From Candidatus Anstonellaceae archaeon (GTDB lineage Archaea > Micrarchaeota > Micrarchaeia > Anstonellales > Anstonellaceae): 64,000 nt of DNA. The position numbers and the translations under genes are program-made. The stretch lies in NCBI GenBank assembly GCA_038887295.1, contig JAWAKW010000001.1, positions 173,668 to 237,667 on the forward strand. The letters run 5' to 3'. The stretch's first letter is position 1. Each line of letters begins with the position of its first letter. Below the pieces are notes generated by a model. That model was given only the letters and a program-made list of their open reading frames with translations, was not told where the DNA came from and did not search any database. Shown here in pieces: positions 2,948 to 16,499 of the stretch.

Positions 2948-3361
2948 TCACCTTCTGCGCTTTCTTTTGCGCCTCTGGTCTTGCACAGGATGCTGACTGA
3001 GGCGCTGGAAGTGCGGAACATCAGCCATGCAAAGCTCAAAAAACACAAGCAGTATTGCAAAAAGCGAAACTATCTCAAAAAGGGCTGAAAGGAGCCCCGA
3101 GCTTGCCTCAGAAAAACCAAGCTGAGACCCGAAAAGCTCCACTGCAAACCCTGCTGCAAACCCAACCGATGCCACCCCCAAGGCAGTGGCATAGCGGACA
3201 GCCCTCCATTTTGCATAAAAGAAGTGCACTGGTAGATGCCTTCGTGCCTTGTCCCAATTCAGCTTATAGTACGCAAAAAGCAGGCTTGCAAGCAAAGCAA
3301 GCACTACCTTGACCAAAAGAACTGAAGAAATAATTTCCGAAGCCTCTGGCTGGGCAGCCAT
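2948..3361 (-). CDS. hypothetical membrane protein
   Basis: Multiple hydrophobic helices and a basic C-terminal tail. The start was trimmed to the internal Met (MAAQPE...) to remove the overlap with the upstream gene. Confidence 0.4.
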   Translation of the reverse strand: MAAQPEASEIISSVLLVKVVLALLASLLFAYYKLNWDKARRHLPVHFFYAKWRAVRYATALGVASVGFAAGFAVELFGSQLGFSEASSGLLSALFEIVSLFAILLVFFELCMADVPHFQRLSQHPVQDQRRKRKRRR

Positions 3362-3389
3362 GCAAAATTTTTGCACAGCTGAATTAAAA

Positions 3390-3806
3390 TTATTTGCCAA
3401 TCCTGTCTGCTGCAAGGTGCGAGGCCACCCCAACAAATGCGGCAAGGCCTTCTTGCCAACCAAACAGCGCAAAGCCTGCGGCAAAACAAACCAAGGCAGA
3501 AATTAAAGTGTGCGTAATCCCTCTGTGCCTTGGCCTGAAAAGCACCCATGCAGCCCATGTCCCTGCCAAAAGCAAAAAAGCAACCAGCAAGCTTCTAAAC
3601 ATCAATCCTAATGCAATTGCTACAAGCACAAGGAAAAGGCGCATTATTTGAGAAATCTTGCTTGAGTCCAGGTCAATGTCTGGCAAAAGCGAAAAAAATC
3701 CGGAAATTGCGCAGATGCTGGCAAGCTTCCAGCCATCTGCTCCAAGCAACCACCCTAAAGCTGCACCGGCTACCAAACCAAAAAGAAGATGAGCCTGCCA
3801 CTTCAC
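3390..3806 (-). CDS. membrane-bound metal-dependent hydrolase-like protein (DUF457/YdjM-like)
   Basis: Polytopic membrane protein with His-containing motifs (RHRGITHTL, ASHLAADR) typical of the DUF457 family. Confidence 0.45.
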   Translation of the reverse strand: MKWQAHLLFGLVAGAALGWLLGADGWKLASICAISGFFSLLPDIDLDSSKISQIMRLFLVLVAIALGLMFRSLLVAFLLLAGTWAAWVLFRPRHRGITHTLISALVCFAAGFALFGWQEGLAAFVGVASHLAADRIGK

Positions 3807-3815
3807 TCAAAACCC

Positions 3816-4337
3816 TCAGTACTGCAAGCTTTTAACAAACCTCCTAAAGTGTTGCAAATAGCGCCTCATGTGGTGTTCTTGTTCAGATTGCGACATTTTT
3901 GCAAGCTCATAAGAAAGTCTCATAATTTCATAGTATGCCTCACCAAAGGCGGCATCTGAAGTTATTTCATCTTGGCTTGCTATTGAGGTTGCCTCGCACA
4001 GGTCGGCCAAATACTTAAGCTGCTCCAAAGCCTCTCTCCCTTTTTTAGTCAGCTTTAGGCGCTTCCTTGCTGTCAAGCGCTTTCGGATTGCAGAAAAAAG
4101 CATGACAAGATAATAGTATATTTGGTGCAAAATCGTCATTTTGGTTTCTGTCTGCCGCTGGACCGTAAGATCCACAACTATTGGTGCATAGGTTTCCTGC
4201 GGAACTATAAGAAGCGCCTCTGCTTTGGGATCAACAAAGCGTTCATCCATCAACCTGCCAAACTGGTGCCTTCTCCTTTCAACTGGTCCTTCTGGCTTTT
4301 TGAGAATTGGCTGAGGCTCCTGGAAAATCTGTTCCAT
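3816..4337 (-). CDS. hypothetical protein, possibly a PadR/winged-helix-like regulator
   Basis: 173-aa ORF with a basic helix segment KRLKLTKKGREALEQL; it is convergent with island gene 1. Confidence 0.3.
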   Translation of the reverse strand: MEQIFQEPQPILKKPEGPVERRRHQFGRLMDERFVDPKAEALLIVPQETYAPIVVDLTVQRQTETKMTILHQIYYYLVMLFSAIRKRLTARKRLKLTKKGREALEQLKYLADLCEATSIASQDEITSDAAFGEAYYEIMRLSYELAKMSQSEQEHHMRRYLQHFRRFVKSLQY

Positions 4338-4367
4338 ACTGGTCGCTGCTTTTATTTTTGTGTCAAG

Positions 4368-4378
4368 ATTTATATAAT
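4368..4378 (+). promoter_or_regulatory. archaeal TATA box for island gene 1 (leaderless start at 4401)
   Basis: TTTATATAA lies about 25-30 nt upstream of the ATG at 4401, the spacing typical of archaeal leaderless transcripts. Confidence 0.5.
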
Positions 4379-4400
4379 TGATTTTTCACGAAATACACTT

Positions 4401-7400
4401 ATGTTCAAACAAGAAAACACCTCTGTCTATTTTTCTAAAACAACCACACCATATTACTTTACTAGCCTAAACAACTATAAGGAAACACTTAAGGGAACTT
4501 CTAATATAACCATCGGCTTAATTAAAGTAAAAGAAGGAACTCTCAAAGAGATTCTCCAGCTACGTAATTCGTTTGGTTTTACAGAAGATCAAATCAAATC
4601 TTTGGTACCTTTTGGGACTCCTGATAGATCTGCTCCAACAAACATAATTGAAAGCAAAGATTATCTTTTACAAAAATATGGTGATTCCTACAGGATTTTT
4701 AAAAAAAATGTAGATCCTGTAGAAAGCCTCCAAAATGCGCTTTCTCCTTGGCAGATAAAAATAGATAAAGATGTTGCATCTCAAATCGTCAACAACTTAA
4801 TTTCTACAAAAGGAAAAGATTATTCAATAGGCGTTCAATCAAATGGTAAGGATTATGTACTTCGCTTCTCTTCTTTAAGTAATGGAACAACTTATTCTCT
4901 AAGTGTTTTTGAAACAAATATCCTCACAGAACAAATGCGAACTGAGATTGTTTCAAACTTTGAAAATTTTGAAAATCACTATAACTCAAATCCTGATTTC
5001 AAGAAGAAATGGGATAACTTTGCTTTGCTTAGGCCATTTCTTGTTGAAAAGATTATCACAGGAATGCAAAGTGAGATGAGAGAAATTTTTAGAACTTTTT
5101 CAGAAGGTCTTAATCATCACATCATTGCTGAGATCAACAAACCAATAATAACTGAAGGAATCGTTGGTTATGAACAAAAGAATTTGAACCTAAAAAGCAA
5201 TGGTAATTACTATGATATTGAGTTTTTGTCTTCACCAAATATTAAAGCTTTTGAAAATGATCTAAAAAAATATGGATTCAAAGAAGACGAAATCAAAAAA
5301 GCCAAAAAGCTTGACGAAACCACTATTTATTACCTCAATAATAGACCCTATCGTTATTACAAGCACGGTTATTATGAAATAAGAAACGACGGTCAAAGTT
5401 CATTTATTGCACAAAGGACAAAGGAGGGAGAATATGAGCTTATCTTAAGGATTAAGAAATCATACCTGGATGATAACAAGACCCTTAAACTGGGGGACTG
5501 GACTATTAGCAAGGCACAAAAAGATAGTGCAACCTTGAAAATCCCAATTTACGGCCAAAAAGAGGAACCTAACTTTTTCAAAAAGAACATTGAGGCCCAC
5601 ACACTTTATATTAGACCTTTAGATCCTAACTCAATCAAGCAGCTAGAGAAAGAAGGTGTAATATTTGAAGGAGAAGATCTAAAAACAATTGAACAGCTCT
5701 TATACAACTTATTAAAACCTTCTATGTTCGATTATTTATTAAGAAATAAGATCAAAACCGCAATCTCAAACATTAAAGATCCAAAATACGGCTTTTGGGA
5801 TATTGATAGTGGTGATTCTAGATTACAGATTAAAAAAATAGAACAGGGTAGAAAATTCCAAATAATAGATAAGCTTTTAATAGGAAAACAAATCGAAAAT
5901 GGAAGGCTTATAGGAAGCTTCCAATATAATGTTTCAGAAAAAAACGGCCGCGTCTGGCTTTCAACCTATCGTTATAGCGGGCTTTACTATTTAGATCCTT
6001 ATGCTATTGGAATGTTTTCTACTGCTGTCAAAGGATTTGTAGAAGGATTAAGCGGAATAGTTACAGATCCTATTGAATTTTTCTTACCTTTTTTGAAAAG
6101 ACCAAATGCTGTTGTCGAAAATGCAGTAAAGAACCCTACGCCTGAAAATATACGAAATGCAGCTTTCGCGTTGGATATGTGGATGGTAGATTCACTCTTG
6201 ACATCAACAGGATATGGTATAGTTATAAGCAAGGCCGCTTTAAAAGTTGTTGGACGGAGCCTTTCAAAAGCAACCTTAAGAAAGTTAGGTGAAAAGATAA
6301 CTAATGGGGGTATAATAGATAATCTTGCAAACCACCATGATGAAATCTTCAAAATTTTGATGGATACCAATCTAAAAAATGGGTCGTCAGTAGATAATAT
6401 AATAATCAAGTACGTCGGCGAGGATATATATCGTAAAGATCCAATCCAAGCGATCCAGAAGTTTTTTGATTCTCCTGACCCTCTTTTGATGCCTTTGAAA
6501 AGAGAAGTAGCAGAAGCACTCGGTGTCGATCTCACATTTTCTAATCTTGCCAAAGGAGCTGCAACAGCTGTATCTAAAACTGTGACTAATGTTGAAAGAT
6601 ATGCAAAACCCCTCCATCATTATTTAGACGATTGGACAGAACACGTCGCACAAAAGTTGCTTAGCGTTGACAAACAAGAGTTTTTACAGATAGATTTCTT
6701 ACCTTCTATTCAGTCATCCCTTGAGAAACTTCTAAAAAATAAACTGCAGAATCTAAAGATTGATATCAGCGAAATTTTGTCAAGAAAAGAAGTTCTTGAT
6801 GCGTATGAAAAAGCACTCAATTCTCTAAGTGCAGAAGATATTATAGAATATCTGAATGCAATTAAAAAGGAACTAATCAAAGAACTCAAAAATTTGAAAG
6901 CAGATAAAGAAATTATTGACTACGTTGAAAAAGGCATCACTTCTCCTCAGATAACAGGCAGGCCATTAGGCTCTGTTGGGCGGAAATTAACTGCGGAAGG
7001 TGCTCTCCTAGGTGAAATGTTAGAGGATATCATGCTGAAAGCGCAAATCAAAAGGCGTCTAATAAGCTCATTAAAAGACATTAGTGAGGAAGAAATCGGC
7101 CGTCAGGTAGATAATGTTTGTAAGAACATTAATTCTTGGAAAAGCAAGGAAGATTACATTAACCAATTCAAACAACATGTCAAAAACCTTGATGGAGTAA
7201 GCAAACAAATAATAGATGCAGTAAATTCTCTCAAACCACAAGAGATTCAAATCATTCCCATGGGTGCTCTTGTTTCAAAACAAGCAATTAAAAAAACTAA
7301 AAATTTACCCAGTAGTAGTGGAAAGCCTCAATTCCTCAATAGTATTCAAGATGCAAAAGACTCATACTCAATCCATATGTTTGGGGATGAACAAATCTTG

Positions 7401-8423
7401 CTTGGCTCACTTGCAAAGAAGGCAGATAAACTCGTCGACCTTCCAAACGAAATTATAAAAATGGAAGAATATCTTGCAAGATTCGTAGGCTTAAAAGACA
7501 GTCGCATTCTTAGGTTTATGAATGAAGACGATTTTATCTCCACTTTAAATAAAACTAAATATTCAGAAAAATACAAAGAATATTTAATAAAATCGTTTAA
7601 AGACCTTCGAGATCGATATATTCAATACACCTCAGGTAATTCTATAAGCGAAGCTTTCTTTATCGATTGCTCTTCCTTTGTTCAAAAAATGAAGAAAGCA
7701 AAGAATTTCAATTTCTTGAAGAATAGGAATCGACTGCAAACTATTATGCATGAACATCTATTCGATGCGATGAACGCAGTAAACGCTTATACAAGACGCC
7801 AAGAACTTATACAAAGTTTCATAAGTAAAATGGATGAGGCCAAAATTGAATTTAACAAGCAAATAAGAGACAAACTAGAAAAAGGGATAATCTCAGGTGA
7901 AGAACTAAAGAAGCTAGAAGATGAGATCATAAATAAGATAACTACTAATCAACAGTTGCAGCAAACACTCTCTGAGATCAGGAAACTCTCACTACAAATC
8001 GATTCATTTATCAAGGATACCATGTCGTATAAGTTCTTTAAACTCATGACTGATCTAGAATCATTCAGCAAAGTCGTGTCAGCTGTTATTAAGATCGGCA
8101 ACTCTATCTTCAAGAGTAGTAAAGAATTTTCCACCTTAATAAATAACTATCCCGAGCTTAAGATAACCATTATGGGATTAGTAATGTCAGAATATATAGA
8201 AGCATTATCGCAAAAAAAAGTCCCCCCAATTGACGATCTCATTAGAAATGCAAACGGACAAGTTTCCTCTCCAACTATCCTAAATAAACGCGGAGCCAAA
8301 TCTACAATACCAGAAGAATTGGAAACTCCAGAAGAATTGGAAACTAAAAATTCAGGTCAAGGTGAATCGAAAAGAATAGATATAGATCCCAATCAGAATA
8401 AATATCTAAAACCAGATTTTTAA
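4401..8423 (+). CDS. giant ORFan protein 1 (1340 aa), N/K-rich with a long coiled-coil region in its second half
   Basis: Long uninterrupted frame. The start was placed at the ATG at 4401 because the upstream extension in the ORF track overlaps the convergent gene 3816..4337 and a TATA box sits at -28. There is no signal peptide, no P-loop, and no family I recognise. Confidence 0.75.
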   Translation: MFKQENTSVYFSKTTTPYYFTSLNNYKETLKGTSNITIGLIKVKEGTLKEILQLRNSFGFTEDQIKSLVPFGTPDRSAPTNIIESKDYLLQKYGDSYRIFKKNVDPVESLQNALSPWQIKIDKDVASQIVNNLISTKGKDYSIGVQSNGKDYVLRFSSLSNGTTYSLSVFETNILTEQMRTEIVSNFENFENHYNSNPDFKKKWDNFALLRPFLVEKIITGMQSEMREIFRTFSEGLNHHIIAEINKPIITEGIVGYEQKNLNLKSNGNYYDIEFLSSPNIKAFENDLKKYGFKEDEIKKAKKLDETTIYYLNNRPYRYYKHGYYEIRNDGQSSFIAQRTKEGEYELILRIKKSYLDDNKTLKLGDWTISKAQKDSATLKIPIYGQKEEPNFFKKNIEAHTLYIRPLDPNSIKQLEKEGVIFEGEDLKTIEQLLYNLLKPSMFDYLLRNKIKTAISNIKDPKYGFWDIDSGDSRLQIKKIEQGRKFQIIDKLLIGKQIENGRLIGSFQYNVSEKNGRVWLSTYRYSGLYYLDPYAIGMFSTAVKGFVEGLSGIVTDPIEFFLPFLKRPNAVVENAVKNPTPENIRNAAFALDMWMVDSLLTSTGYGIVISKAALKVVGRSLSKATLRKLGEKITNGGIIDNLANHHDEIFKILMDTNLKNGSSVDNIIIKYVGEDIYRKDPIQAIQKFFDSPDPLLMPLKREVAEALGVDLTFSNLAKGAATAVSKTVTNVERYAKPLHHYLDDWTEHVAQKLLSVDKQEFLQIDFLPSIQSSLEKLLKNKLQNLKIDISEILSRKEVLDAYEKALNSLSAEDIIEYLNAIKKELIKELKNLKADKEIIDYVEKGITSPQITGRPLGSVGRKLTAEGALLGEMLEDIMLKAQIKRRLISSLKDISEEEIGRQVDNVCKNINSWKSKEDYINQFKQHVKNLDGVSKQIIDAVNSLKPQEIQIIPMGALVSKQAIKKTKNLPSSSGKPQFLNSIQDAKDSYSIHMFGDEQILLGSLAKKADKLVDLPNEIIKMEEYLARFVGLKDSRILRFMNEDDFISTLNKTKYSEKYKEYLIKSFKDLRDRYIQYTSGNSISEAFFIDCSSFVQKMKKAKNFNFLKNRNRLQTIMHEHLFDAMNAVNAYTRRQELIQSFISKMDEAKIEFNKQIRDKLEKGIISGEELKKLEDEIINKITTNQQLQQTLSEIRKLSLQIDSFIKDTMSYKFFKLMTDLESFSKVVSAVIKIGNSIFKSSKEFSTLINNYPELKITIMGLVMSEYIEALSQKKVPPIDDLIRNANGQVSSPTILNKRGAKSTIPEELETPEELETKNSGQGESKRIDIDPNQNKYLKPDF

Positions 8424-8464
8424 ATATTGATTGAAATATTGAATAAATGTGAAGAGGTGTTCAT

Positions 8465-11035
8465 ATGAATCAAAACACACAACAAAAATCTGTCAATCAT
8501 ATTGATGAATTTAATAGATATGCCAATTGGTGTATGTCCTTTTCTACTAAATATGGCAATTCTTTCAGGAAAGAAGGAGACAATATTGAAATAGTTGATA
8601 ACAGAACTGAAAGCAATAAAATACAGATAACAAAAAAAGAAATCGGAGACTTATTTTATAATTTCAAGCAAGTCAAATATCATTTTGACCAACTTACCAA
8701 ACAAGGTCTAAATAACGAAGAAATCAAGGAGTTATTCTCTACTCTAGAACTATGGAAGTATTTCTTCTTTGGCAACCTACCGTGGGATACTGATCACAAA
8801 GCCAAAGATGTAATTTCCTCATTTCAAAACATGAAAGATCTTTTTATGTATAAAACTTGGGTAACAGAATTCAAAGGTGCAAAAAATGACCAAGACAAAA
8901 TAAATCTTTGGTACAATATCAAAAAGGTTTTCAACTTGGCAGATAAGCATGTGAAGGATAAAAACTCTACTGTTGAATCTCTCTCTAATCAAGTCTATAA
9001 TGATATAATTAAAGATGTTGAGAAAATCAAAAATAGATATTTTAAAGGTCTTGATTTAAACACATTACATAATGAGAAAGAAAAAATCATAGATTCATAT
9101 AATAAATCCGTAATAGCTTCTTCTCCGACAAGCAAAAAGACCAATCAACCAGCACCCTCAAATATAGTGCTAACAGCAGAGCAAATATACAAACAAAATA
9201 AATACCTCCAAGCAGCAGCAACAGTCGATTTCGATAATGCCCCAAATGCAACAAGAAGACTCTTGGTTTCATCAGGTCTTCTTACTGAAGAACAGTTGGA
9301 AAAACCAAATGAGACCATTCAAGCAATATTTACTTCGTTTTATACCATGAAGCTTGTTAGAGAAGAAAACGCTACAAAAAAGACGATACAACTTCTCAAA
9401 TCCATCATGGAAAAGGACGGGGTTGAAATCACCCCGGAAAACATCCTCAAATATCTATGGAACGAACAAGAACAAAGATCAAGGCTTGCCGCAGCGATGG
9501 TAGGCCAGCAAATTGGCAATAAAAAAGTAAGTCAAGGAAATGCAAAGTGGTGGGAAGGCATATTTAAGATAGTCTATGAGCGTTCTGGGGCAACTCAAGT
9601 GCAAGTTCCGACTCTCCAAAGTGAGCATAATGCTCTTCTTCGCCAGGCAGAAGAGCTCATTAACAATGCAACAGACTACCAAAAGCAGCAGCCAGCATTC
9701 CAATCTCTCAACACTATTTACCAGGCAAATAAAGATTTATCTCCAACAGACATTACACAAGAGACAAATAATGCACTCAAGAATGCGATTGAAGAAGCCA
9801 AAAAGGCCCCACTTTCTCCTGAACAGAAGTTAGAGGCCCAGTCTCAGAAGCGACAGCTCAATGTCATTTATTCCTACAACAACGAGTTTGCCAATATAGA
9901 TCATCCATTGGCAAAGCACCTTCACAAAGAGTTACAAAAAGATACAGGCTATTTTTCAATCATAGCATCATCTCTGTACCGAAAGATAGATCAAGAAAGT
10001 ATAGCGGCAGCATCTATAATAGCAGAAGATTATGTAAATGCAGTCAAGTCAAACATTCAATTTTTTGCAAAGTTTTATGACCAGTCAAAGTCTTTCGGAG
10101 AGAACGTAGTTCAATATTACAGAAATCTTCAAGTATTAGATTTGATTTCATTGCTTGGAAAAAGAGTGCCAATTGATAATCAAGGCAATACCGCACTTTA
10201 TACTACCACAAGCTATTTCATTGATATGGGTTATATAAAGAAAGAAGGTGAAAAATTTGTTGCAACAGATGACGCCCCGCAATTGCTTAAAAATATGATG
10301 AAAAGAGGATCTTTGGTAGGAACCGCAGAGCAAATACTAAATCAAGACGCATTTGAGATCCTTGCGCATTTTGGTCTTGCAACTATTGACAAGAAAGGCA
10401 AAGTGAGTCTGGATGAAGCAGCATTAAATAAGCTCTCCAACGAAGAGCAAGAGATACTAAAGAACTTTGTAAATAAGTACAACTCTGACAAAACAGTTGC
10501 AATATACGAAAGTGAGCCAGGCAAGTCTTCGCCCGCAGAAGTTATGGTTAAGCTTGTAAAAAGTTATATTCAACCTTCACCAGAAAATATTACTGAAAGA
10601 AAAGAAACAACAACTACTCAAACGCCTCCCACAAAGAAAGAAGAACAACCAACAACTCCACCACAGCCCACCCCTCAGCCACCCATCACAGGCGAAAAAC
10701 CTGAGAGCACGCAATTACCACCAGAACAGACGAGAATAATAATTGGAGATGCTTGGTTCGAAAGTAACGAAGCCAGCACTTATAGATATAATAATGAATT
10801 CCAAAACATAAGAGGTTTGGAGAAAATACATGAGATACTAAGCAAACAGTGGGGTGAGCTTGTAAATCAAGTCAAACAGAAGCTTGGAAACGATGAAGTT
10901 CTAACTTTGCAAAAAATCCAGAATTTTGTCAATACTGTAATATCTGATGACATGCTAAAATCCTATTCTCAAAGTTATTTAACTAATATAAATTCTCTAT
11001 CTAATTACATTGCAGCTATGGAGATTAGAAAATAG
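8465..11035 (+). CDS. giant ORFan protein 2 (856 aa) with a Thr/Pro/Gln-rich linker
   Basis: GAGGTG Shine-Dalgarno 6 nt upstream of the ATG and a 41-nt gap after gene 1 indicate an operon. The low-complexity TTTTQTPPTKKEEQPTTPPQPTPQPP segment lies near the C-terminus. Confidence 0.75.
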   Translation: MNQNTQQKSVNHIDEFNRYANWCMSFSTKYGNSFRKEGDNIEIVDNRTESNKIQITKKEIGDLFYNFKQVKYHFDQLTKQGLNNEEIKELFSTLELWKYFFFGNLPWDTDHKAKDVISSFQNMKDLFMYKTWVTEFKGAKNDQDKINLWYNIKKVFNLADKHVKDKNSTVESLSNQVYNDIIKDVEKIKNRYFKGLDLNTLHNEKEKIIDSYNKSVIASSPTSKKTNQPAPSNIVLTAEQIYKQNKYLQAAATVDFDNAPNATRRLLVSSGLLTEEQLEKPNETIQAIFTSFYTMKLVREENATKKTIQLLKSIMEKDGVEITPENILKYLWNEQEQRSRLAAAMVGQQIGNKKVSQGNAKWWEGIFKIVYERSGATQVQVPTLQSEHNALLRQAEELINNATDYQKQQPAFQSLNTIYQANKDLSPTDITQETNNALKNAIEEAKKAPLSPEQKLEAQSQKRQLNVIYSYNNEFANIDHPLAKHLHKELQKDTGYFSIIASSLYRKIDQESIAAASIIAEDYVNAVKSNIQFFAKFYDQSKSFGENVVQYYRNLQVLDLISLLGKRVPIDNQGNTALYTTTSYFIDMGYIKKEGEKFVATDDAPQLLKNMMKRGSLVGTAEQILNQDAFEILAHFGLATIDKKGKVSLDEAALNKLSNEEQEILKNFVNKYNSDKTVAIYESEPGKSSPAEVMVKLVKSYIQPSPENITERKETTTTQTPPTKKEEQPTTPPQPTPQPPITGEKPESTQLPPEQTRIIIGDAWFESNEASTYRYNNEFQNIRGLEKIHEILSKQWGELVNQVKQKLGNDEVLTLQKIQNFVNTVISDDMLKSYSQSYLTNINSLSNYIAAMEIRK

Positions 11036-11104
11036 CGCATACATCCTAAAGAAATCTCGTGGAATTGATTAGCTTTATATTAATATTATATATAATTTAT
11101 AAAC

Positions 11105-13384
11105 ATGAATCAATACAAGCTAATCCAATCCAAAAATGAAACCATAAAGGATATTTTAGAAGGTATCAAAGATAAAAAAACCAAAGACGATGTCAAAAAT
11201 GTAATCAACAATATCAAAGATGATTACAAATATCTAAAAGATTTCCTTGTAGGTGTTTATCATCTCCAAAACTTTAATAGTATAATCCTATCCCTCATCA
11301 AGCTTTATGATAAAGATCCAAATAATTTTCGACAAAATATCGAGTATCTCCACTCAGTTTTGCTGCAAAAGGATATAAACAAATTTAGTGAAGAGTTAAG
11401 CTCTTTAACAACAAGCACCACTCAGATTTTAACAACAAGCAGCACTCAGATACCGCTGCCAAAGTCCGCTTCAAATTGGTATCTGATTGGTATGTCCCTT
11501 TTCTCTGACAAACCATTTTCTCCACGGTATTCTCCCATGCCACACAAACCTTCCAGAATATGGACACCTTTCGATCAGAGGATGCAACAGATTATGTACG
11601 GAGATTTAAATCAATCCTTCATCCAAGAATATAATGTTCAAGCATGGCCCTTCCAACTTGATTTTCCAGAGCGATATCTAAATCTTTTTAGACCTACTCG
11701 TGTGAGATATCCATTTTTAGTTACTGGATATTTCACGGGAGGAAGTCTCGTGAATCTTAATTTTAACTCAGGTAATATTGATACATTTTCTCTTATAGAT
11801 ACTGCTCACTTAGTCACAGGAGTGAATGTTCTCAAAAATAAATTAATCATAAATCAAGCAGCCATAGCCTTTAAAATGCTTCAAGGAACAACTTCTCTAT
11901 CACGTATTGAAAGGCACACGGATTTATCATCTAAACTGGATCTGCTTTTTAGGAATGGGGAAAAAACTACAGGTCAAATGCTTGTATTCCTTGAAAATAA
12001 ACGTTATGGCATACTCCAAGGCTACTATTACGACGGCAAAAGCTGGTTTGCATCAGATTTGGTCATGAGAGATGGAAAAATCATCTCTGGTGGAACAGCC
12101 CAAGGCGTTCTTCAGGGAGATTCTTTGGCAGGTTTATTTAATTACAATAAGCTAGGTGAGAATGACACTTTCTACGTAGTGCTTTACTCTAATTCTTTGG
12201 GGGCAGGTGTTGAAGCACAACAAAACACCAACCAAAAGCTAATCTCTTTCTTGAAGAATCTGGACGATTTTTCAGTTGAAGTCGGAGTCTTCTCTTTAGA
12301 GAGAGGCTATTTCGGTCAAGATGTTGATAAAGCTCAAGGTGGTATAATTGGGTTTGGCAACCAAAACTTTCATGTTTCTACATTTGTCGGTTCAGAGCAT
12401 TCTGAAGTTAATATACTTGGACTTGCAGCTGCTGCACAACGCACTGCAGCATCATTTTTCATAAGAAAAAATGAGGAAGGGGATATCACTCACGGAAATA
12501 TCAACCTTTCTACTTCTAAAAAGATAGGAAATACCACAATAACTTTTTCATCAAGAGTGAAAGGCTCTAAAAGAAGCACAGAGGGCCAAGGAGCTATCGA
12601 GGTTAGAATAGGAGAGGACGCAGATGCAACTATCATCAGATTTGGTTATGATGGTATCAGTCAGGTCGATTTCTTCAAGCGGTCTGCAAACTTCTTTAAT
12701 AGCCAAAATATAACAGACACAAGAAGCCTCATCAACGCAATCAATGCTCTTCTTTTAGTTACGCCCCTCGAAAACTTTCCTTATCCCTTAGCACAAGTGG
12801 AAATTGAAAAGGATGGAGGAAGAATCACATTATCCAAGTTAAAAGAAGGAGGAAGCGGATTCTCCTACGAAATAAAAGATTTTATGGGCATGAAAAAAGC
12901 ATTTTCCTCATTAGCTTTGACACCAAAGGGCAAAATCCTTAATTTAGGGTTTGATGTTGACCATAATAATCAACTAGTATTGCAAGTAGGCAACAAGAAT
13001 GTTGCTCTTGGCACCAGAGTAAAAATCGGAGAAGGTAAAATAGTCGGATCGGCTGGATGGGAACAAGGTTCTTTTAAGACCACTTTTGGATATAGTGAGA
13101 AATTAGGAGATACATCTGTTGAATCGGCTATGGTTACAGGTAAAAGTCCACAAGGTAACTATTGGGGGGGCCAGCTTAATATTTCTTATAAGATTGATGA
13201 TAATGTAAATCTTGGAGGTTCTGTTGGAGTTCTAAAGTTCAATAATATCACATACTTTTCAGCTGGCAGCAACTTTAAGATCAAGAATGACTGGGGGGAA
13301 TTCCAAGCGGGATTTGTCTTTATGTTCTCGAAAATTTCACCCCTCAACTATTTCTTCTCTATCAATTATGGCTCTAGAAAATAG
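11105..13384 (+). CDS. giant ORFan protein 3 (759 aa) with a beta-rich, beta-barrel-like C-terminal half
   Basis: The C-terminal roughly 400 aa show alternating hydrophobic/Gly-Ser-Asn-Thr patterning (GSVGVLKFNNITYFSAGSNFKIKNDWGEFQAGFVFMF). An AT-rich TATA-like stretch lies immediately upstream. Confidence 0.75.
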   Translation: MNQYKLIQSKNETIKDILEGIKDKKTKDDVKNVINNIKDDYKYLKDFLVGVYHLQNFNSIILSLIKLYDKDPNNFRQNIEYLHSVLLQKDINKFSEELSSLTTSTTQILTTSSTQIPLPKSASNWYLIGMSLFSDKPFSPRYSPMPHKPSRIWTPFDQRMQQIMYGDLNQSFIQEYNVQAWPFQLDFPERYLNLFRPTRVRYPFLVTGYFTGGSLVNLNFNSGNIDTFSLIDTAHLVTGVNVLKNKLIINQAAIAFKMLQGTTSLSRIERHTDLSSKLDLLFRNGEKTTGQMLVFLENKRYGILQGYYYDGKSWFASDLVMRDGKIISGGTAQGVLQGDSLAGLFNYNKLGENDTFYVVLYSNSLGAGVEAQQNTNQKLISFLKNLDDFSVEVGVFSLERGYFGQDVDKAQGGIIGFGNQNFHVSTFVGSEHSEVNILGLAAAAQRTAASFFIRKNEEGDITHGNINLSTSKKIGNTTITFSSRVKGSKRSTEGQGAIEVRIGEDADATIIRFGYDGISQVDFFKRSANFFNSQNITDTRSLINAINALLLVTPLENFPYPLAQVEIEKDGGRITLSKLKEGGSGFSYEIKDFMGMKKAFSSLALTPKGKILNLGFDVDHNNQLVLQVGNKNVALGTRVKIGEGKIVGSAGWEQGSFKTTFGYSEKLGDTSVESAMVTGKSPQGNYWGGQLNISYKIDDNVNLGGSVGVLKFNNITYFSAGSNFKIKNDWGEFQAGFVFMFSKISPLNYFFSINYGSRK

Positions 13385-13405
13385 AATTGATTGTTCTTCT
13401 AAAAA

Positions 13406-13477
13406 TGGACCCGGGGGGATTCGAACCCCCGGCCTCCTGCTTGCAAAGCAGGCGCGCTACCACTGCGCCACAGGCCC
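13406..13477 (-). tRNA. tRNA-Ala(TGC)
   Basis: Manual fold gives acceptor GGGCCTG/CGGGTCC with the G3:U70 Ala identity pair, D-arm GCGC-AGTGGTA-GCGC, anticodon loop TTTGCAA and T-loop TTCGAAT. Total length is 72 nt and a T5 tract follows. Confidence 0.85.
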
Positions 13478-13536
13478 ACGCCAACGCTTGTTTTTTTCAA
13501 GGAAGCATTTTTATATCGAACTGCCAAACTTAACGC

Positions 13537-13872
13537 ATGGGCCTGCTTGAGCTAATCAAGAATATGCTTAAGCCTAAGTCCCCACTTGCTTCTCAGAAGG
13601 CAAAATGCCCAAAATGCTCTGCCCAGCTTGAGCTTGGCGCAGAGCGCTGCCCTTCATGCGGAACTCATGTAGAATCGATGTTTGCTATTTCCTGCCCGAA
13701 ATGCAAGGAGCAAAATCCACTTAGGGCAGAAAAATGCTCCAAATGTGGTTTTTCGTTTGTCCAGCAACAGGTAGGAACCGGGAAAGTGATTTATATCTGC
13801 CCAATTTGCGGATACCGCGCCGATTATTTCATGCTCTCATGCCCATCTTGCGGAGTAAAATTTGTAAGCTAA
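13537..13872 (+). CDS. multi-zinc-ribbon protein
   Basis: Four CxxC...CxxC pairs (CPKCSA..CPSCG, CPKCKE..CSKCG, CPICG..CPSCG). Confidence 0.55.
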   Translation: MGLLELIKNMLKPKSPLASQKAKCPKCSAQLELGAERCPSCGTHVESMFAISCPKCKEQNPLRAEKCSKCGFSFVQQQVGTGKVIYICPICGYRADYFMLSCPSCGVKFVS

Positions 13873-14273
13873 TCTGTAAGCCTAAATTTGTAGCCGTAGT
13901 GTATAAGACCTTCTTCAGAATCTTCAATTATTCTTCTGAATACCATTTCAACTTTATCGCCTATACTGACTTTTTTTGCTCCTACAATTTGGGCAGTGAG
14001 CCGCGGTCCCTCATCAAGCTCTACAATTGCCAAAATATAGGGCACTTGCTTTTCAAATCCAGCAGGCCCGGCGGTCACCTCCGTAAAGGAATATATTTTG
14101 CCTTTGCCTGAAAATTGCCTGCTTTCTATTTTTCCTTTCCTGCGGCACTTTGGGCAAAGCTTTCTTGCAGGAAAGTAGCTGGTTTGACAATTTCGACAAT
14201 ATGTACCAACCAGCCTATATCTTTCTGGTATCCTTCTCCAAGTTATTGCAAGGTTTTCAGATGGCAAGTTCAT
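13869..14273 (-). CDS. DUF35 OB-fold/Zn-ribbon protein, the thiolase/HMG-CoA synthase partner
   Basis: CxxC..CxxC ribbon (CRNCQ...CPKCRRKG) and position downstream of the thiolase form the archaeal DUF35-thiolase-HMGCS trio. Confidence 0.75.
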   Translation of the reverse strand: MNLPSENLAITWRRIPERYRLVGTYCRNCQTSYFPARKLCPKCRRKGKIESRQFSGKGKIYSFTEVTAGPAGFEKQVPYILAIVELDEGPRLTAQIVGAKKVSIGDKVEMVFRRIIEDSEEGLIHYGYKFRLTD

Positions 14274-14278
14274 CCCCC

Positions 14279-15439
14279 CTAAACTTTCCTGAATATATGC
14301 ACCACCGCAGTAGCTCCAGAGCCGCCTACATTATGAGTCATGCCAATTTCACAGTCTTTTACCTGCCTGCCTTCTGCCTTTCCACGAAGCTGCCAGACAA
14401 TTTCCACAGCTTGCTTTACCCCAGTTGCGCCAACCGGGTGGCCACAACCTTTCAGCCCTCCAGAGGTGTTTACTGAAATTTCTGCATTAAGTGCAGTTTT
14501 TCCCTCCTCTGATGCCTTCCCGCCTTCACCCTTTGGGAAAAAGCCCAGATCCTCTATTGCCATAATTTCAGCAATCGTAAAGCAGTCATGAACTTCTACA
14601 ACATCAATGTCTTTTGGGGAGAGTCCGGCTTGCTGATAAGCTTTTTTTGCTGCAATTTTCGTGCTTTTTAGCTCAGTCATGTTTTCCCTTGAGTGAAGTG
14701 CAAGCACATCCGAGGCCTGTGCAGATGCGACTATTTCAATCGGCTGCTCACAGTAGCGCTTTGCCTTTTCAAGCGGCATCAGAATTGCTGCTGCAGCGCC
14801 ATCTGTAATTGGCGAGCAGTCAAAAAGCTTCAGCGGAGATGCAATGTATTTACTTTTCATCACAGTTTCCACAGTTATCTCATTTTGGAAATGAGCATAC
14901 TTGTTTTTGGCGGCGTTTGCATGGTTTTTAACTGCAACTGAAGCCATCTGCTCTTCTGTTGTGCCGTACTGGTGCATGTGCCTTCGTGCCATAAGAGCAT
15001 AAATTGCAGGAAAAGTTGCTCCCATAAAAAGCTCCCATTCTTGGTCACCTGCTCCACCAAGTGCAGAGGCAACTTCATTGCCAGGGGTGTCAGTCATCTT
15101 CTCCACCCCACCAACCACTACGCAATCATGCATGCCAGAGGCAACTGCCAAGTATCCTGTCCGCAGTGCAACCCCCCCAGAGGCGCAAGCCGCCTCCACT
15201 CTGGTAGATGGGATGGGAGTAAGACCCATAAAGTCTGCCACCAATGCACCTACATGCTCCTGCCCAACCAGTGAACCAGGGGCCATGGTCCCAATATAAA
15301 GTGCGTCAATCTCTTCCCCATGAAGATTGGCATCCTCTACCGCTCTTACTCCTGCTTCAATTATCATATCTCTAAATCCACGTGTCCATTCTTCCCCGAA
15401 TTTACTCATCCCTACGCCAACTATTGCAACTCTTCTCAT
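14279..15439 (-). CDS. acetyl-CoA acetyltransferase (archaeal thiolase)
   Basis: Thiolase-fold motifs (ACASGG-like EAACASGGVA, CSPITDGAAA, GHPVGATG). Confidence 0.85.
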   Translation of the reverse strand: MRRVAIVGVGMSKFGEEWTRGFRDMIIEAGVRAVEDANLHGEEIDALYIGTMAPGSLVGQEHVGALVADFMGLTPIPSTRVEAACASGGVALRTGYLAVASGMHDCVVVGGVEKMTDTPGNEVASALGGAGDQEWELFMGATFPAIYALMARRHMHQYGTTEEQMASVAVKNHANAAKNKYAHFQNEITVETVMKSKYIASPLKLFDCSPITDGAAAAILMPLEKAKRYCEQPIEIVASAQASDVLALHSRENMTELKSTKIAAKKAYQQAGLSPKDIDVVEVHDCFTIAEIMAIEDLGFFPKGEGGKASEEGKTALNAEISVNTSGGLKGCGHPVGATGVKQAVEIVWQLRGKAEGRQVKDCEIGMTHNVGGSGATAVVHIFRKV

Positions 15440-15443
15440 ACAA

Positions 15444-16499
15444 TCACATTTTCAGCTTGCCCCTATTCTTTACATAAATTGCATAATCCACATACTCTTT
15501 GTCATTTATGTAGTCTTGTAGGCGCCTTCCTTTGTACGCTTCCCTTTTCTGCAGAAGTACATCAGTTACCCGAATAGCAAAGGCATCTGAGCCTGCACCT
15601 GAGCCAAAAGAAGTCAGAAGAATTCTCTGCTCAGGCTTTGCAATATCCAACACACCGCAAAGCCCAATCAAAGAAGCGCCAGAATACGTGTTGCCAATTA
15701 TCGGAGTGAAAAGCCCTGGCTTGACTTTTTCTGGGTCAATTCCCATCTTTTTTGCCGCCTCAATTGGGAATTTGCCGTTTGGCTGGTGAAATACGAAATA
15801 ATCATAGTCTGCAGCCCGCGTCCCGGTTTTTTCAAAAAGCGCCTGCGTAGCCCCCATCACATGCCTAAAGTAAGCAGGCGCACCGGTGAACCTGCCCCCA
15901 TGAGAAGGGTAGTGCGCATGCTGCTTCCTCCAAAAATCAGGGGTATCAGTGGTAAATGAGCACGTAGCCTCAATTTCTGCAACAATCTCCTCCTTTTGTT
16001 GCCCAATCAGGAACGCGGCTGCCCCTGCAGAGGCAGTGTATTCCAGCGCATCGCCAGGTCTTCCTTGTGCTGTATCCGAGCCAATCGCAAGCCCGTATCG
16101 TATCATCCCTGCGCCCACCATGCCCATGCACATCTGAATGCCAGCGGTCCCTGCCTTGCAGGCAAACTCCAAATCCGCTGCGGTAAGGTTGGGGGTTGCG
16201 CCTATGGCTTCTGCCACAATAGTTGCAGTCGGCTTGACCGCATAAGGGTGAGATTCAGAACCAACATATACCGCGCCAATGGCTTCAGGATCCAGTTTTG
16301 CAAAAGCAATTGCATTTCTTGCAGCCTCCACTGCAAGGGTGGCAGCATCCTCGTCTATAGCTGGAACTGATTTTTCCATCACCCCAAGACCCTTGGTTAT
16401 CCGCTCTCCCTCTTCTCCCCATACACGGGCTATCTCTTCAGTCTTTATTCTGTATTTTGGAACATATGCACCATATCCTACTATTCCAACTGATTGCAT
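15444..16499 (-). CDS. hydroxymethylglutaryl-CoA synthase (archaeal type)
   Basis: The N-terminus [15 protein letters not shown] and the length are typical; it is coupled to the thiolase by a 5-nt gap. Confidence 0.85.

Follow-up and report, generated by a model that had tools for sequence, protein, structure and literature searches.

A divergent allelic cassette encoding a predicted beta-rich orphan protein in a low-GC gene cluster of Micrarchaeota

The window analysed here, by which we mean the whole 64,000-nucleotide stretch of the Anstonellaceae contig, contains a low-GC cluster of three large + strand genes designated, in order, isl1, isl2 and isl3, the last of which encodes the protein flagged in a preliminary description of this DNA. 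The 759-aa ORF given in that description is present at 11105–13384 on the + strand and is a real gene; since no earlier start codon follows the preceding stop, it cannot be extended upstream. The features of the locus, with the evidence for each, are as follows.

4401–8423, + strand: isl1, which opens the low-GC cluster and encodes an alpha-helical protein of 1340 aa (ORF, start codon)
8465–10572, + strand: conserved part of isl2, residues 1 to ~702, alpha-helical (comparison with the sister locus L001)
10573–13403, no strand assigned: variable cassette, made up of all of isl3 and, from isl2, the Pro/Thr-rich linker with the helical domain at the C-terminus (blastn, identity profile)
11074–11098, + strand: AT-rich, TATA-box-like stretch TTTATATTAATATTATATATAATTT (read from the sequence)
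11105–11413, + strand: isl3 residues 1–103, K/D-rich helical N-terminal domain (composition, AlphaFold, periodicity)
11414–11896, + strand: isl3 residues 104–264, Pro/Phe/aromatic-rich linker, predicted to be disordered (pLDDT, composition)
11897–12664, + strand: isl3 residues 265–520, conserved, family-defining beta core (alignment, AlphaFold)
12665–12781, + strand: isl3 residues 521–559, two-helix insert between the beta regions (both AlphaFold runs)
12782–13384, + strand: isl3 residues 560–759 and stop codon, fast-evolving C-terminal beta domain (motif, alignment, AlphaFold)
13405–13478, - strand: tRNA-Ala(UGC), bounding both the cassette and the low-GC cluster on the right (ARAGORN, Rfam)

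The isl1 protein has a strong alpha periodicity (z = 7.4), neither a signal peptide nor a TM helix, and no match in Pfam, NCBIfam, PADLOC or the PDB; a homologue was not found by phmmer in either of the loci L004 and L005. The isl2 protein is homologous to a 910-aa protein of L004, and its ATG is preceded, 6 nt upstream, by the Shine-Dalgarno-like motif GAGGTG. Upstream of isl3 a Shine-Dalgarno motif is absent and the AT-rich stretch TTTATATTAATATTATATATAATTT sits 7–31 nt before the ATG; from what is generally known of archaeal promoters we take this TATA-like stretch to be a possible separate isl3 promoter, which would presumably give rise to a leaderless mRNA. Against PHROG neither isl2 nor isl3 had a match and isl1 reached E = 0.03–0.08 with no matched stretch passing alone, so that none was significant. 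More generally, isl1, isl2, isl3 and all members of the isl3 family lacked a meaningful match in Pfam, NCBIfam, PHROG or PADLOC, PDB sequence and profile searches of the cluster proteins returned nothing relevant, and isl1, isl2 and isl3 are all devoid of nuclease, ATPase and other effector domains.

The N-terminal domain of isl3 (residues 1–103) is rich in lysine and aspartate (K 12.3%, D 7.7%), shows an alpha periodicity of z = 4.3 and is predicted by AlphaFold to form helices at residues 10–103 with a pLDDT of 56–70; it is a putative docking domain for the C-terminal domain of isl2. The helical, K/D-rich character previously ascribed to the N-terminal 250 aa holds for these residues only, and not for residues 104–264, which are Pro/Phe-rich and predicted to be disordered (pLDDT 21–31), with little regular secondary structure and a single helix at 234–246. 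A 2 x 24-nt tandem duplication in the linker (11404–11451) encodes LTTSTTQI / LTTSSTQI. The conserved core at residues 265–520, with the motifs ELDLLF, VFLENKRWG..QGYY.D..W, DGKI, ND.FY and GYD, aligns in all eight family members at a mean pairwise identity of 33% and contains the best-modelled stretch of the protein (residues 350–510, pLDDT 55–79). The invariant residues in the family alignment are P, seven G, Y and W, none of them of catalytic type, and this limitation of the invariant positions indicates a structural role for isl3. Following the insert, whose helices were placed at residues 520–532 and 539–551 in both AlphaFold runs, the C-terminal domain begins at a conserved YPxxQVEIE motif that is present in eight of the nine sequences searched. 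This domain measures 200–245 aa in the seven sequences with an intact C-terminus and has a mean pairwise identity of 19%; its strands at 645–756 are linked by tight turns and were modelled with a pLDDT of only 27–50. The aromatic-rich strings quoted in the preliminary description, FQAGFVFMF (residues 733–741) and NYFFSINYG (residues 748–756), fall within it. G (12.5%) is abundant in residues 400–759, as are S, F, I and N, whilst the whole protein is without Cys. The barrel-like domain that had been placed at 11900–13384 does correspond to isl3 residues 266–759, but comprises 494 aa rather than about 400.

Both AlphaFold runs, with and without an alignment, predicted the same strand pattern and a nearly all-beta region at ~280–756, in support of a beta-rich make-up of the C-terminal two-thirds of isl3, with ~30 strands of 7–15 residues joined by turns of 2–5 residues and interrupted by two helices at 520–551. 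One face of the predicted strands is nearly charge-free and the opposite one is polar. The mean pLDDT was 34.7 for the single-sequence run, making its 3D model unusable, and 44.9 with the eight-sequence alignment. The dyad hydropathy pattern that had suggested a barrel is present, but lies only weakly above shuffled controls (period-2 signal z = 1.0–1.7 for residues 266–759 and z = 1.9–2.5 for residues 600–759), and internal repeats were absent from an hhalign self-alignment of the family profile (best alternative alignment probability 0.1%). The top PDB matches of the model in Foldseek were LptD, ushers, BamA, porins and VDAC, at E-values as low as 1.5e-6 and TM-scores of ~0.11, and ApoB100 was also matched at a TM-score of ~0.11; viral tail-fibre models in BFVD matched at E ~1e-5 with TM-scores of ~0.1. 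Neither the PDB nor the BFVD matches were accepted as pointing to a particular fold, given TM-scores of ~0.1 and the comparable scores of unrelated beta-rich viral fibres; since the models are of low confidence (C-terminal domain pLDDT < 50), the matches may reflect merely ‘long beta-hairpins’. The back two-thirds of isl3 are predicted to consist of long beta-hairpins resembling the wall of a barrel, a resemblance that is generic.

When 1.84 billion representative proteins were scanned exhaustively with HMMER, eight isl3-family proteins were recovered, the query included, the seven relatives having phmmer E-values of 3e-53 to 1e-7. Five of the seven come from Micrarchaeota or Anstonellaceae MAGs, and the remaining two are one IMG and one ENA protein, the ENA contig having the same Micrarchaeota-type gene neighbourhood. 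The family was defined by its beta core (query residues 265–600, with ELDLLF, VFLENK, GYD and YPxxQVEIE) together with a genomic position upstream of the tRNA-Ala, zinc-ribbon, DUF35 and thiolase genes, and both the core motifs and this position were found. Word-indexed homology searches with the single isl3 sequence and with an eight-sequence profile returned the query alone, a search of GTDB genomes with a three-sequence alignment gave only two loci, both already known, and relatives were found neither in IMG/VR nor, using two different alignments, in JGI metagenomes; there was also no paralogue elsewhere in the 64-kb window. On this sampling the isl3 family is restricted to a few Micrarchaeota. 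The bacterial origin raised in the preliminary description was rejected, since bacterial homologues are absent from the representatives scanned with HMMER.

A signal peptide was found in none of the three cluster proteins, either here or in homologous clusters, and the cluster proteins of the window and L001 contain no hydrophobic helix; in other clusters, a single marginal hydrophobic segment occurs in each of two upstream proteins. The N-terminus of isl3 reads MNQYKLIQSKNETIKDILEGIKDKK, the highest 19-residue Kyte-Doolittle mean being 1.35 (residues 47–65), and the four homologues whose N-terminus is intact likewise have no hydrophobic N-terminal segment. A check against OMP, autotransporter and RHS profiles, as had been suggested, matched no such family to isl3 or to the other members: the Pfam-A scan (E ≤ 1; query, residues 566–759 alone and all eight members) gave unrelated best matches at E ≥ 0.0085, NCBIfam gave 0 families, and there was no RHS/YD profile match. 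An RHS/YD-repeat beta-cocoon is not supported, given the lack of both an RHS profile match and internal repeats. An OMP-style aromatic end is seen at the C-termini of P0004 (...LTLRYNF), P0006 (...FTLDYRW) and the 263-aa ORF of L005 (...LRLRYTF), and the pattern is missing from the query (...FFSINYGSRK), P0005, P0008 and P0009.

In view of these results we consider it very improbable that isl3 is a true outer-membrane-type beta-barrel, be it a porin, translocator or autotransporter-like pore, whether acquired from bacteria or seated in a second archaeal membrane. The Foldseek matches to LptD, ushers, BamA, porins and VDAC, the Gly- and aromatic-rich, Cys-free composition and the three homologues with an OMP-style terminal strand would all favour such a barrel, as would the proposal of two membranes for ARMAN cells from older cryo-ET (reviewed in PMC4243693). 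However, none of the members has a signal peptide or matches an OMP, autotransporter or Omp85 profile at E ≤ 1, the isl3 ORF cannot be lengthened upstream, there are zero bacterial homologues among the 1.84 billion representatives, the query terminus (...NYGSRK) is non-aromatic, the model is of low confidence at a TM-score of ~0.11, and a single membrane covered by an S-layer has been shown for the cultivated Ca. Micrarchaeum harzensis (bioRxiv 10.1101/2021.04.28.441871). We would give little weight, too, to an OMP-like beta-barrel family that is Micrarchaeota's own, unrelated in sequence to others and without a signal peptide, which would be delivered by a non-classical route into the membrane of another cell or a second envelope layer, with the cassette setting partner specificity. 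It is extremely unlikely that the beta region is an open hydrophobic groove of the beta-taco kind (LptD-N, TamB, VPS13-type) moving lipids between cells or compartments. The matches to LptD and ApoB100 and the nearly charge-free strand face would suit such a groove, as would the absence of a signal peptide from isl3, given that eukaryotic bridge-like lipid-transfer proteins are also without one; yet the TM-scores are ~0.11, the AsmA, TamB and chorein profiles went unmatched and repeating beta-groove units were not detectable. The genome adjoining the cluster moreover encodes the first mevalonate-pathway enzymes, so that a dependence on lipids is not evident.

The variability of the locus was assessed against a sister MAG (L001) by blastn of the window and a sliding identity profile. 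The background DNA identity is 72–86%, whilst 3500–9500 and 13400–15500 are 98–100% identical. DNA similarity stops at 10572 and resumes at 13404, leaving a cassette (10573–13403) with no nucleotide similarity to L001 between two flanks that are 98–100% identical. At the protein level isl1 is 99.6% identical to its counterpart, and residues 1–700 of isl2 are 86–100% identical in most 50-residue bins, with a more divergent patch (64%) in the bin that begins at residue 451; at residue 700, exactly at the Pro/Thr linker, the identity of isl2 drops from ~95% to ~30%. The isl3 proteins share ~30% identity (21–36% per domain), a divergence equal to that between family members of different genera, with the exception of a 29-residue conserved hairpin motif that is 52% identical. 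The isl2 C-terminal domains of the two alleles are homologous, sharing motifs such as YRYNNE and ILS.QW.ELVN, and the isl3 N-terminal domain and the isl2 C-terminal domain co-vary within the cassette. The isl2 C-terminal domain and isl3 together are an allelic cassette, which is a new observation; the high divergence of isl3 could also come from relaxed constraint. The target of a diversity-generating retroelement is not supported either, since 3000–15000 contains no template/variable-like repeat pair of at least 16 nt, isl1, isl2 and isl3 contain no reverse-transcriptase domain, and the divergence covers 2.8 kb, not a short variable region as in the targets of such elements.

Wherever enough flank was recovered, the isl3 site lies between cysS/YdjM and tRNA-Ala/thiolase/HMG-CoA synthase. 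In L001, L002, L004, L005 and L006, isl3 adjoins the tRNA-Ala, the zinc-ribbon gene, DUF35, thiolase and HMG-CoA synthase, and in L001, L002 and L006 it is the same tRNA-Ala that comes after the isl3 homologue. The cluster has a GC content of 34–37%, with a GC3 of ~0.32–0.33 in isl2 and isl3, compared with 44–50% GC in the flanking genes. Four further Micrarchaeota assemblies, for which both flanks or an upstream cluster were recovered, carry it at the same position, and the flanking DNA of the assemblies with this chromosomal position ranges from ~45% to 60% GC; a fifth contig begins inside an isl3 homologue and has the downstream side alone in common. The cluster had been termed an ‘island’, and its low GC agrees with that term, but the conserved position across four assemblies, together with the downstream side in a fifth, means that it is not a strain-specific insertion, and a recent foreign insertion was rejected on the grounds of conserved synteny. 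Neither an integrase in the cluster nor att direct repeats or a repeat of the tRNA end were found, and an integrated provirus or tRNA island is likewise not supported, low GC and GC3 being the only hallmarks present. It is improbable that the cluster is instead the remnant of a virus or mobile element at the tRNA-Ala, with a tape-measure-like isl1 and with isl2 and isl3 as a fibre and receptor-binding module whose distal part is exchanged through recombination, as happens in phage tail fibres. The very long, helical isl1, the variable region with its sharp breakpoint at the linker, the adjoining tRNA gene, the GC and GC3 well below those of the flanks and the BFVD tail-fibre models at E ~1e-5 would fit such an origin. 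Genes for integrase, capsid, portal and terminase are all absent, however, PHROG gave no significant match, tblastn found nothing in phage or plasmid collections, IMG/VR held no relative and no att direct repeat was found; the BFVD TM-scores are only ~0.1 and the chromosomal position is constant across assemblies whose flanks vary from ~45% to 60% GC.

An intracellular role is a possible, if doubtful, explanation of the same data. On this account isl3 would be a soluble beta-sandwich or sheet scaffold that might belong to a cytoplasmic complex or serve as an antiviral sensor, the hydrophobic strand faces packing into the protein core and not against lipid, and its divergence arising through an arms race with viruses or relaxed constraint. 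Soluble sheets are equally expected to have alternating strand faces, and the dyad periodicity weakly above chance, conservation solely of a structural type and a cluster free of export or membrane signals, save one marginal segment in each of two other clusters, are all consistent with a soluble protein; immune loci, moreover, commonly show cassette-like hypervariation. Set against this, the predicted strands of 9–15 residues with tight hairpins exceed those of typical soluble sandwiches, PADLOC, Pfam and NCBIfam gave no match, and none of isl1–isl3 contains a nuclease, an ATPase or any other effector domain.

We tentatively favour a role for isl3 as a non-enzymatic, Micrarchaeota-restricted structural protein that serves a three-protein complex as its variable module for contact with a partner. 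Lacking a Sec or Tat signal, it would be synthesised in the cytoplasm, and its N-terminal helical domain would dock onto the C-terminal helical domain of isl2, whilst the ~480-residue beta region, with its two blocks of long antiparallel hairpins, might fold into a large, curved sheet or a wall like that of a barrel. The isl2 C-terminal domain and isl3 would then constitute a replaceable allelic module at the variable, partner-contacting end of an isl1–isl2–isl3 complex, its diversity being maintained because the target varies, e.g. the envelope of another cell or a virus. Docking, complex formation and target contact are inferred, unlike the domain layout, the restriction to Micrarchaeota, the conserved synteny, the absence of targeting signals and the cassette-like divergence, all of which are shown. 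As isl1–isl3 have neither signal peptides nor TM helices, an extracellular or surface role would demand some other export route. The Anstonellales have also been argued to be metabolically rather self-sufficient among DPANN (PMC8561730), which weakens the rationale for host contact. The observation reported in the preliminary description is thus partly confirmed and its interpretation partly supported.

If isl3 did prove to be a membrane-active barrel, it would challenge the confinement of transmembrane beta-barrels to bacteria and organelles, would give archaea their first transmembrane beta-barrel or barrel-type pore-former involved in cell–cell interaction, and would offer one concrete means by which DPANN might make contact with other cells or breach them. 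Whatever the fold, a 2.8-kb cassette at ~30% protein identity lies inside 98–100% identical DNA in genomes with a background of ~80%, and offers a clean natural marker, in Micrarchaeota, for recombination and for selection of a diversifying or balancing kind. The locus further singles out three orphan proteins as candidates for interaction or immunity.

Compared with bacterial outer-membrane beta-barrels (porins, Omp85/TamA, LptD, autotransporters), isl3 has no profile or sequence homology, no signal peptide and no bacterial relatives, adds a 100-aa helical N-terminal domain and a 160-aa disordered linker, and ends in a non-aromatic C-terminus; its host lineage is archaeal, with a single membrane and S-layer reported (bioRxiv 10.1101/2021.04.28.441871). 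A different comparison is offered by the large interaction proteins of DPANN, which isl3 resembles in being confined to a single lineage, without annotated domains, fast-evolving and located in a region of deviant composition. Such lineage-specific proteins usually possess adhesion domains that can be recognised, along with a signal peptide or a TM anchor, whereas isl3 has none of these. Phage tail-fibre modules and CDI/Rhs-type cassettes differ from the isl locus in several respects, since the isl alleles are homologous over their full length (~30% identity, same domain order) and carry no toxin, Rhs, fibre or PHROG signature, and a viral context is absent. A polymorphic toxin and immunity cassette is not supported despite the breakpoint, as the C-terminal domains are homologous, there is no toxin domain and the downstream gene encodes a 759-aa conserved-core protein and not, as in CDI/Rhs cassettes, a small immunity or chaperone gene. 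What the locus does share with tail-fibre modules and CDI/Rhs-type cassettes is its architecture, namely a sharp breakpoint at a linker within near-identical flanking DNA, and a conserved proximal part followed by a highly divergent distal part and downstream gene.

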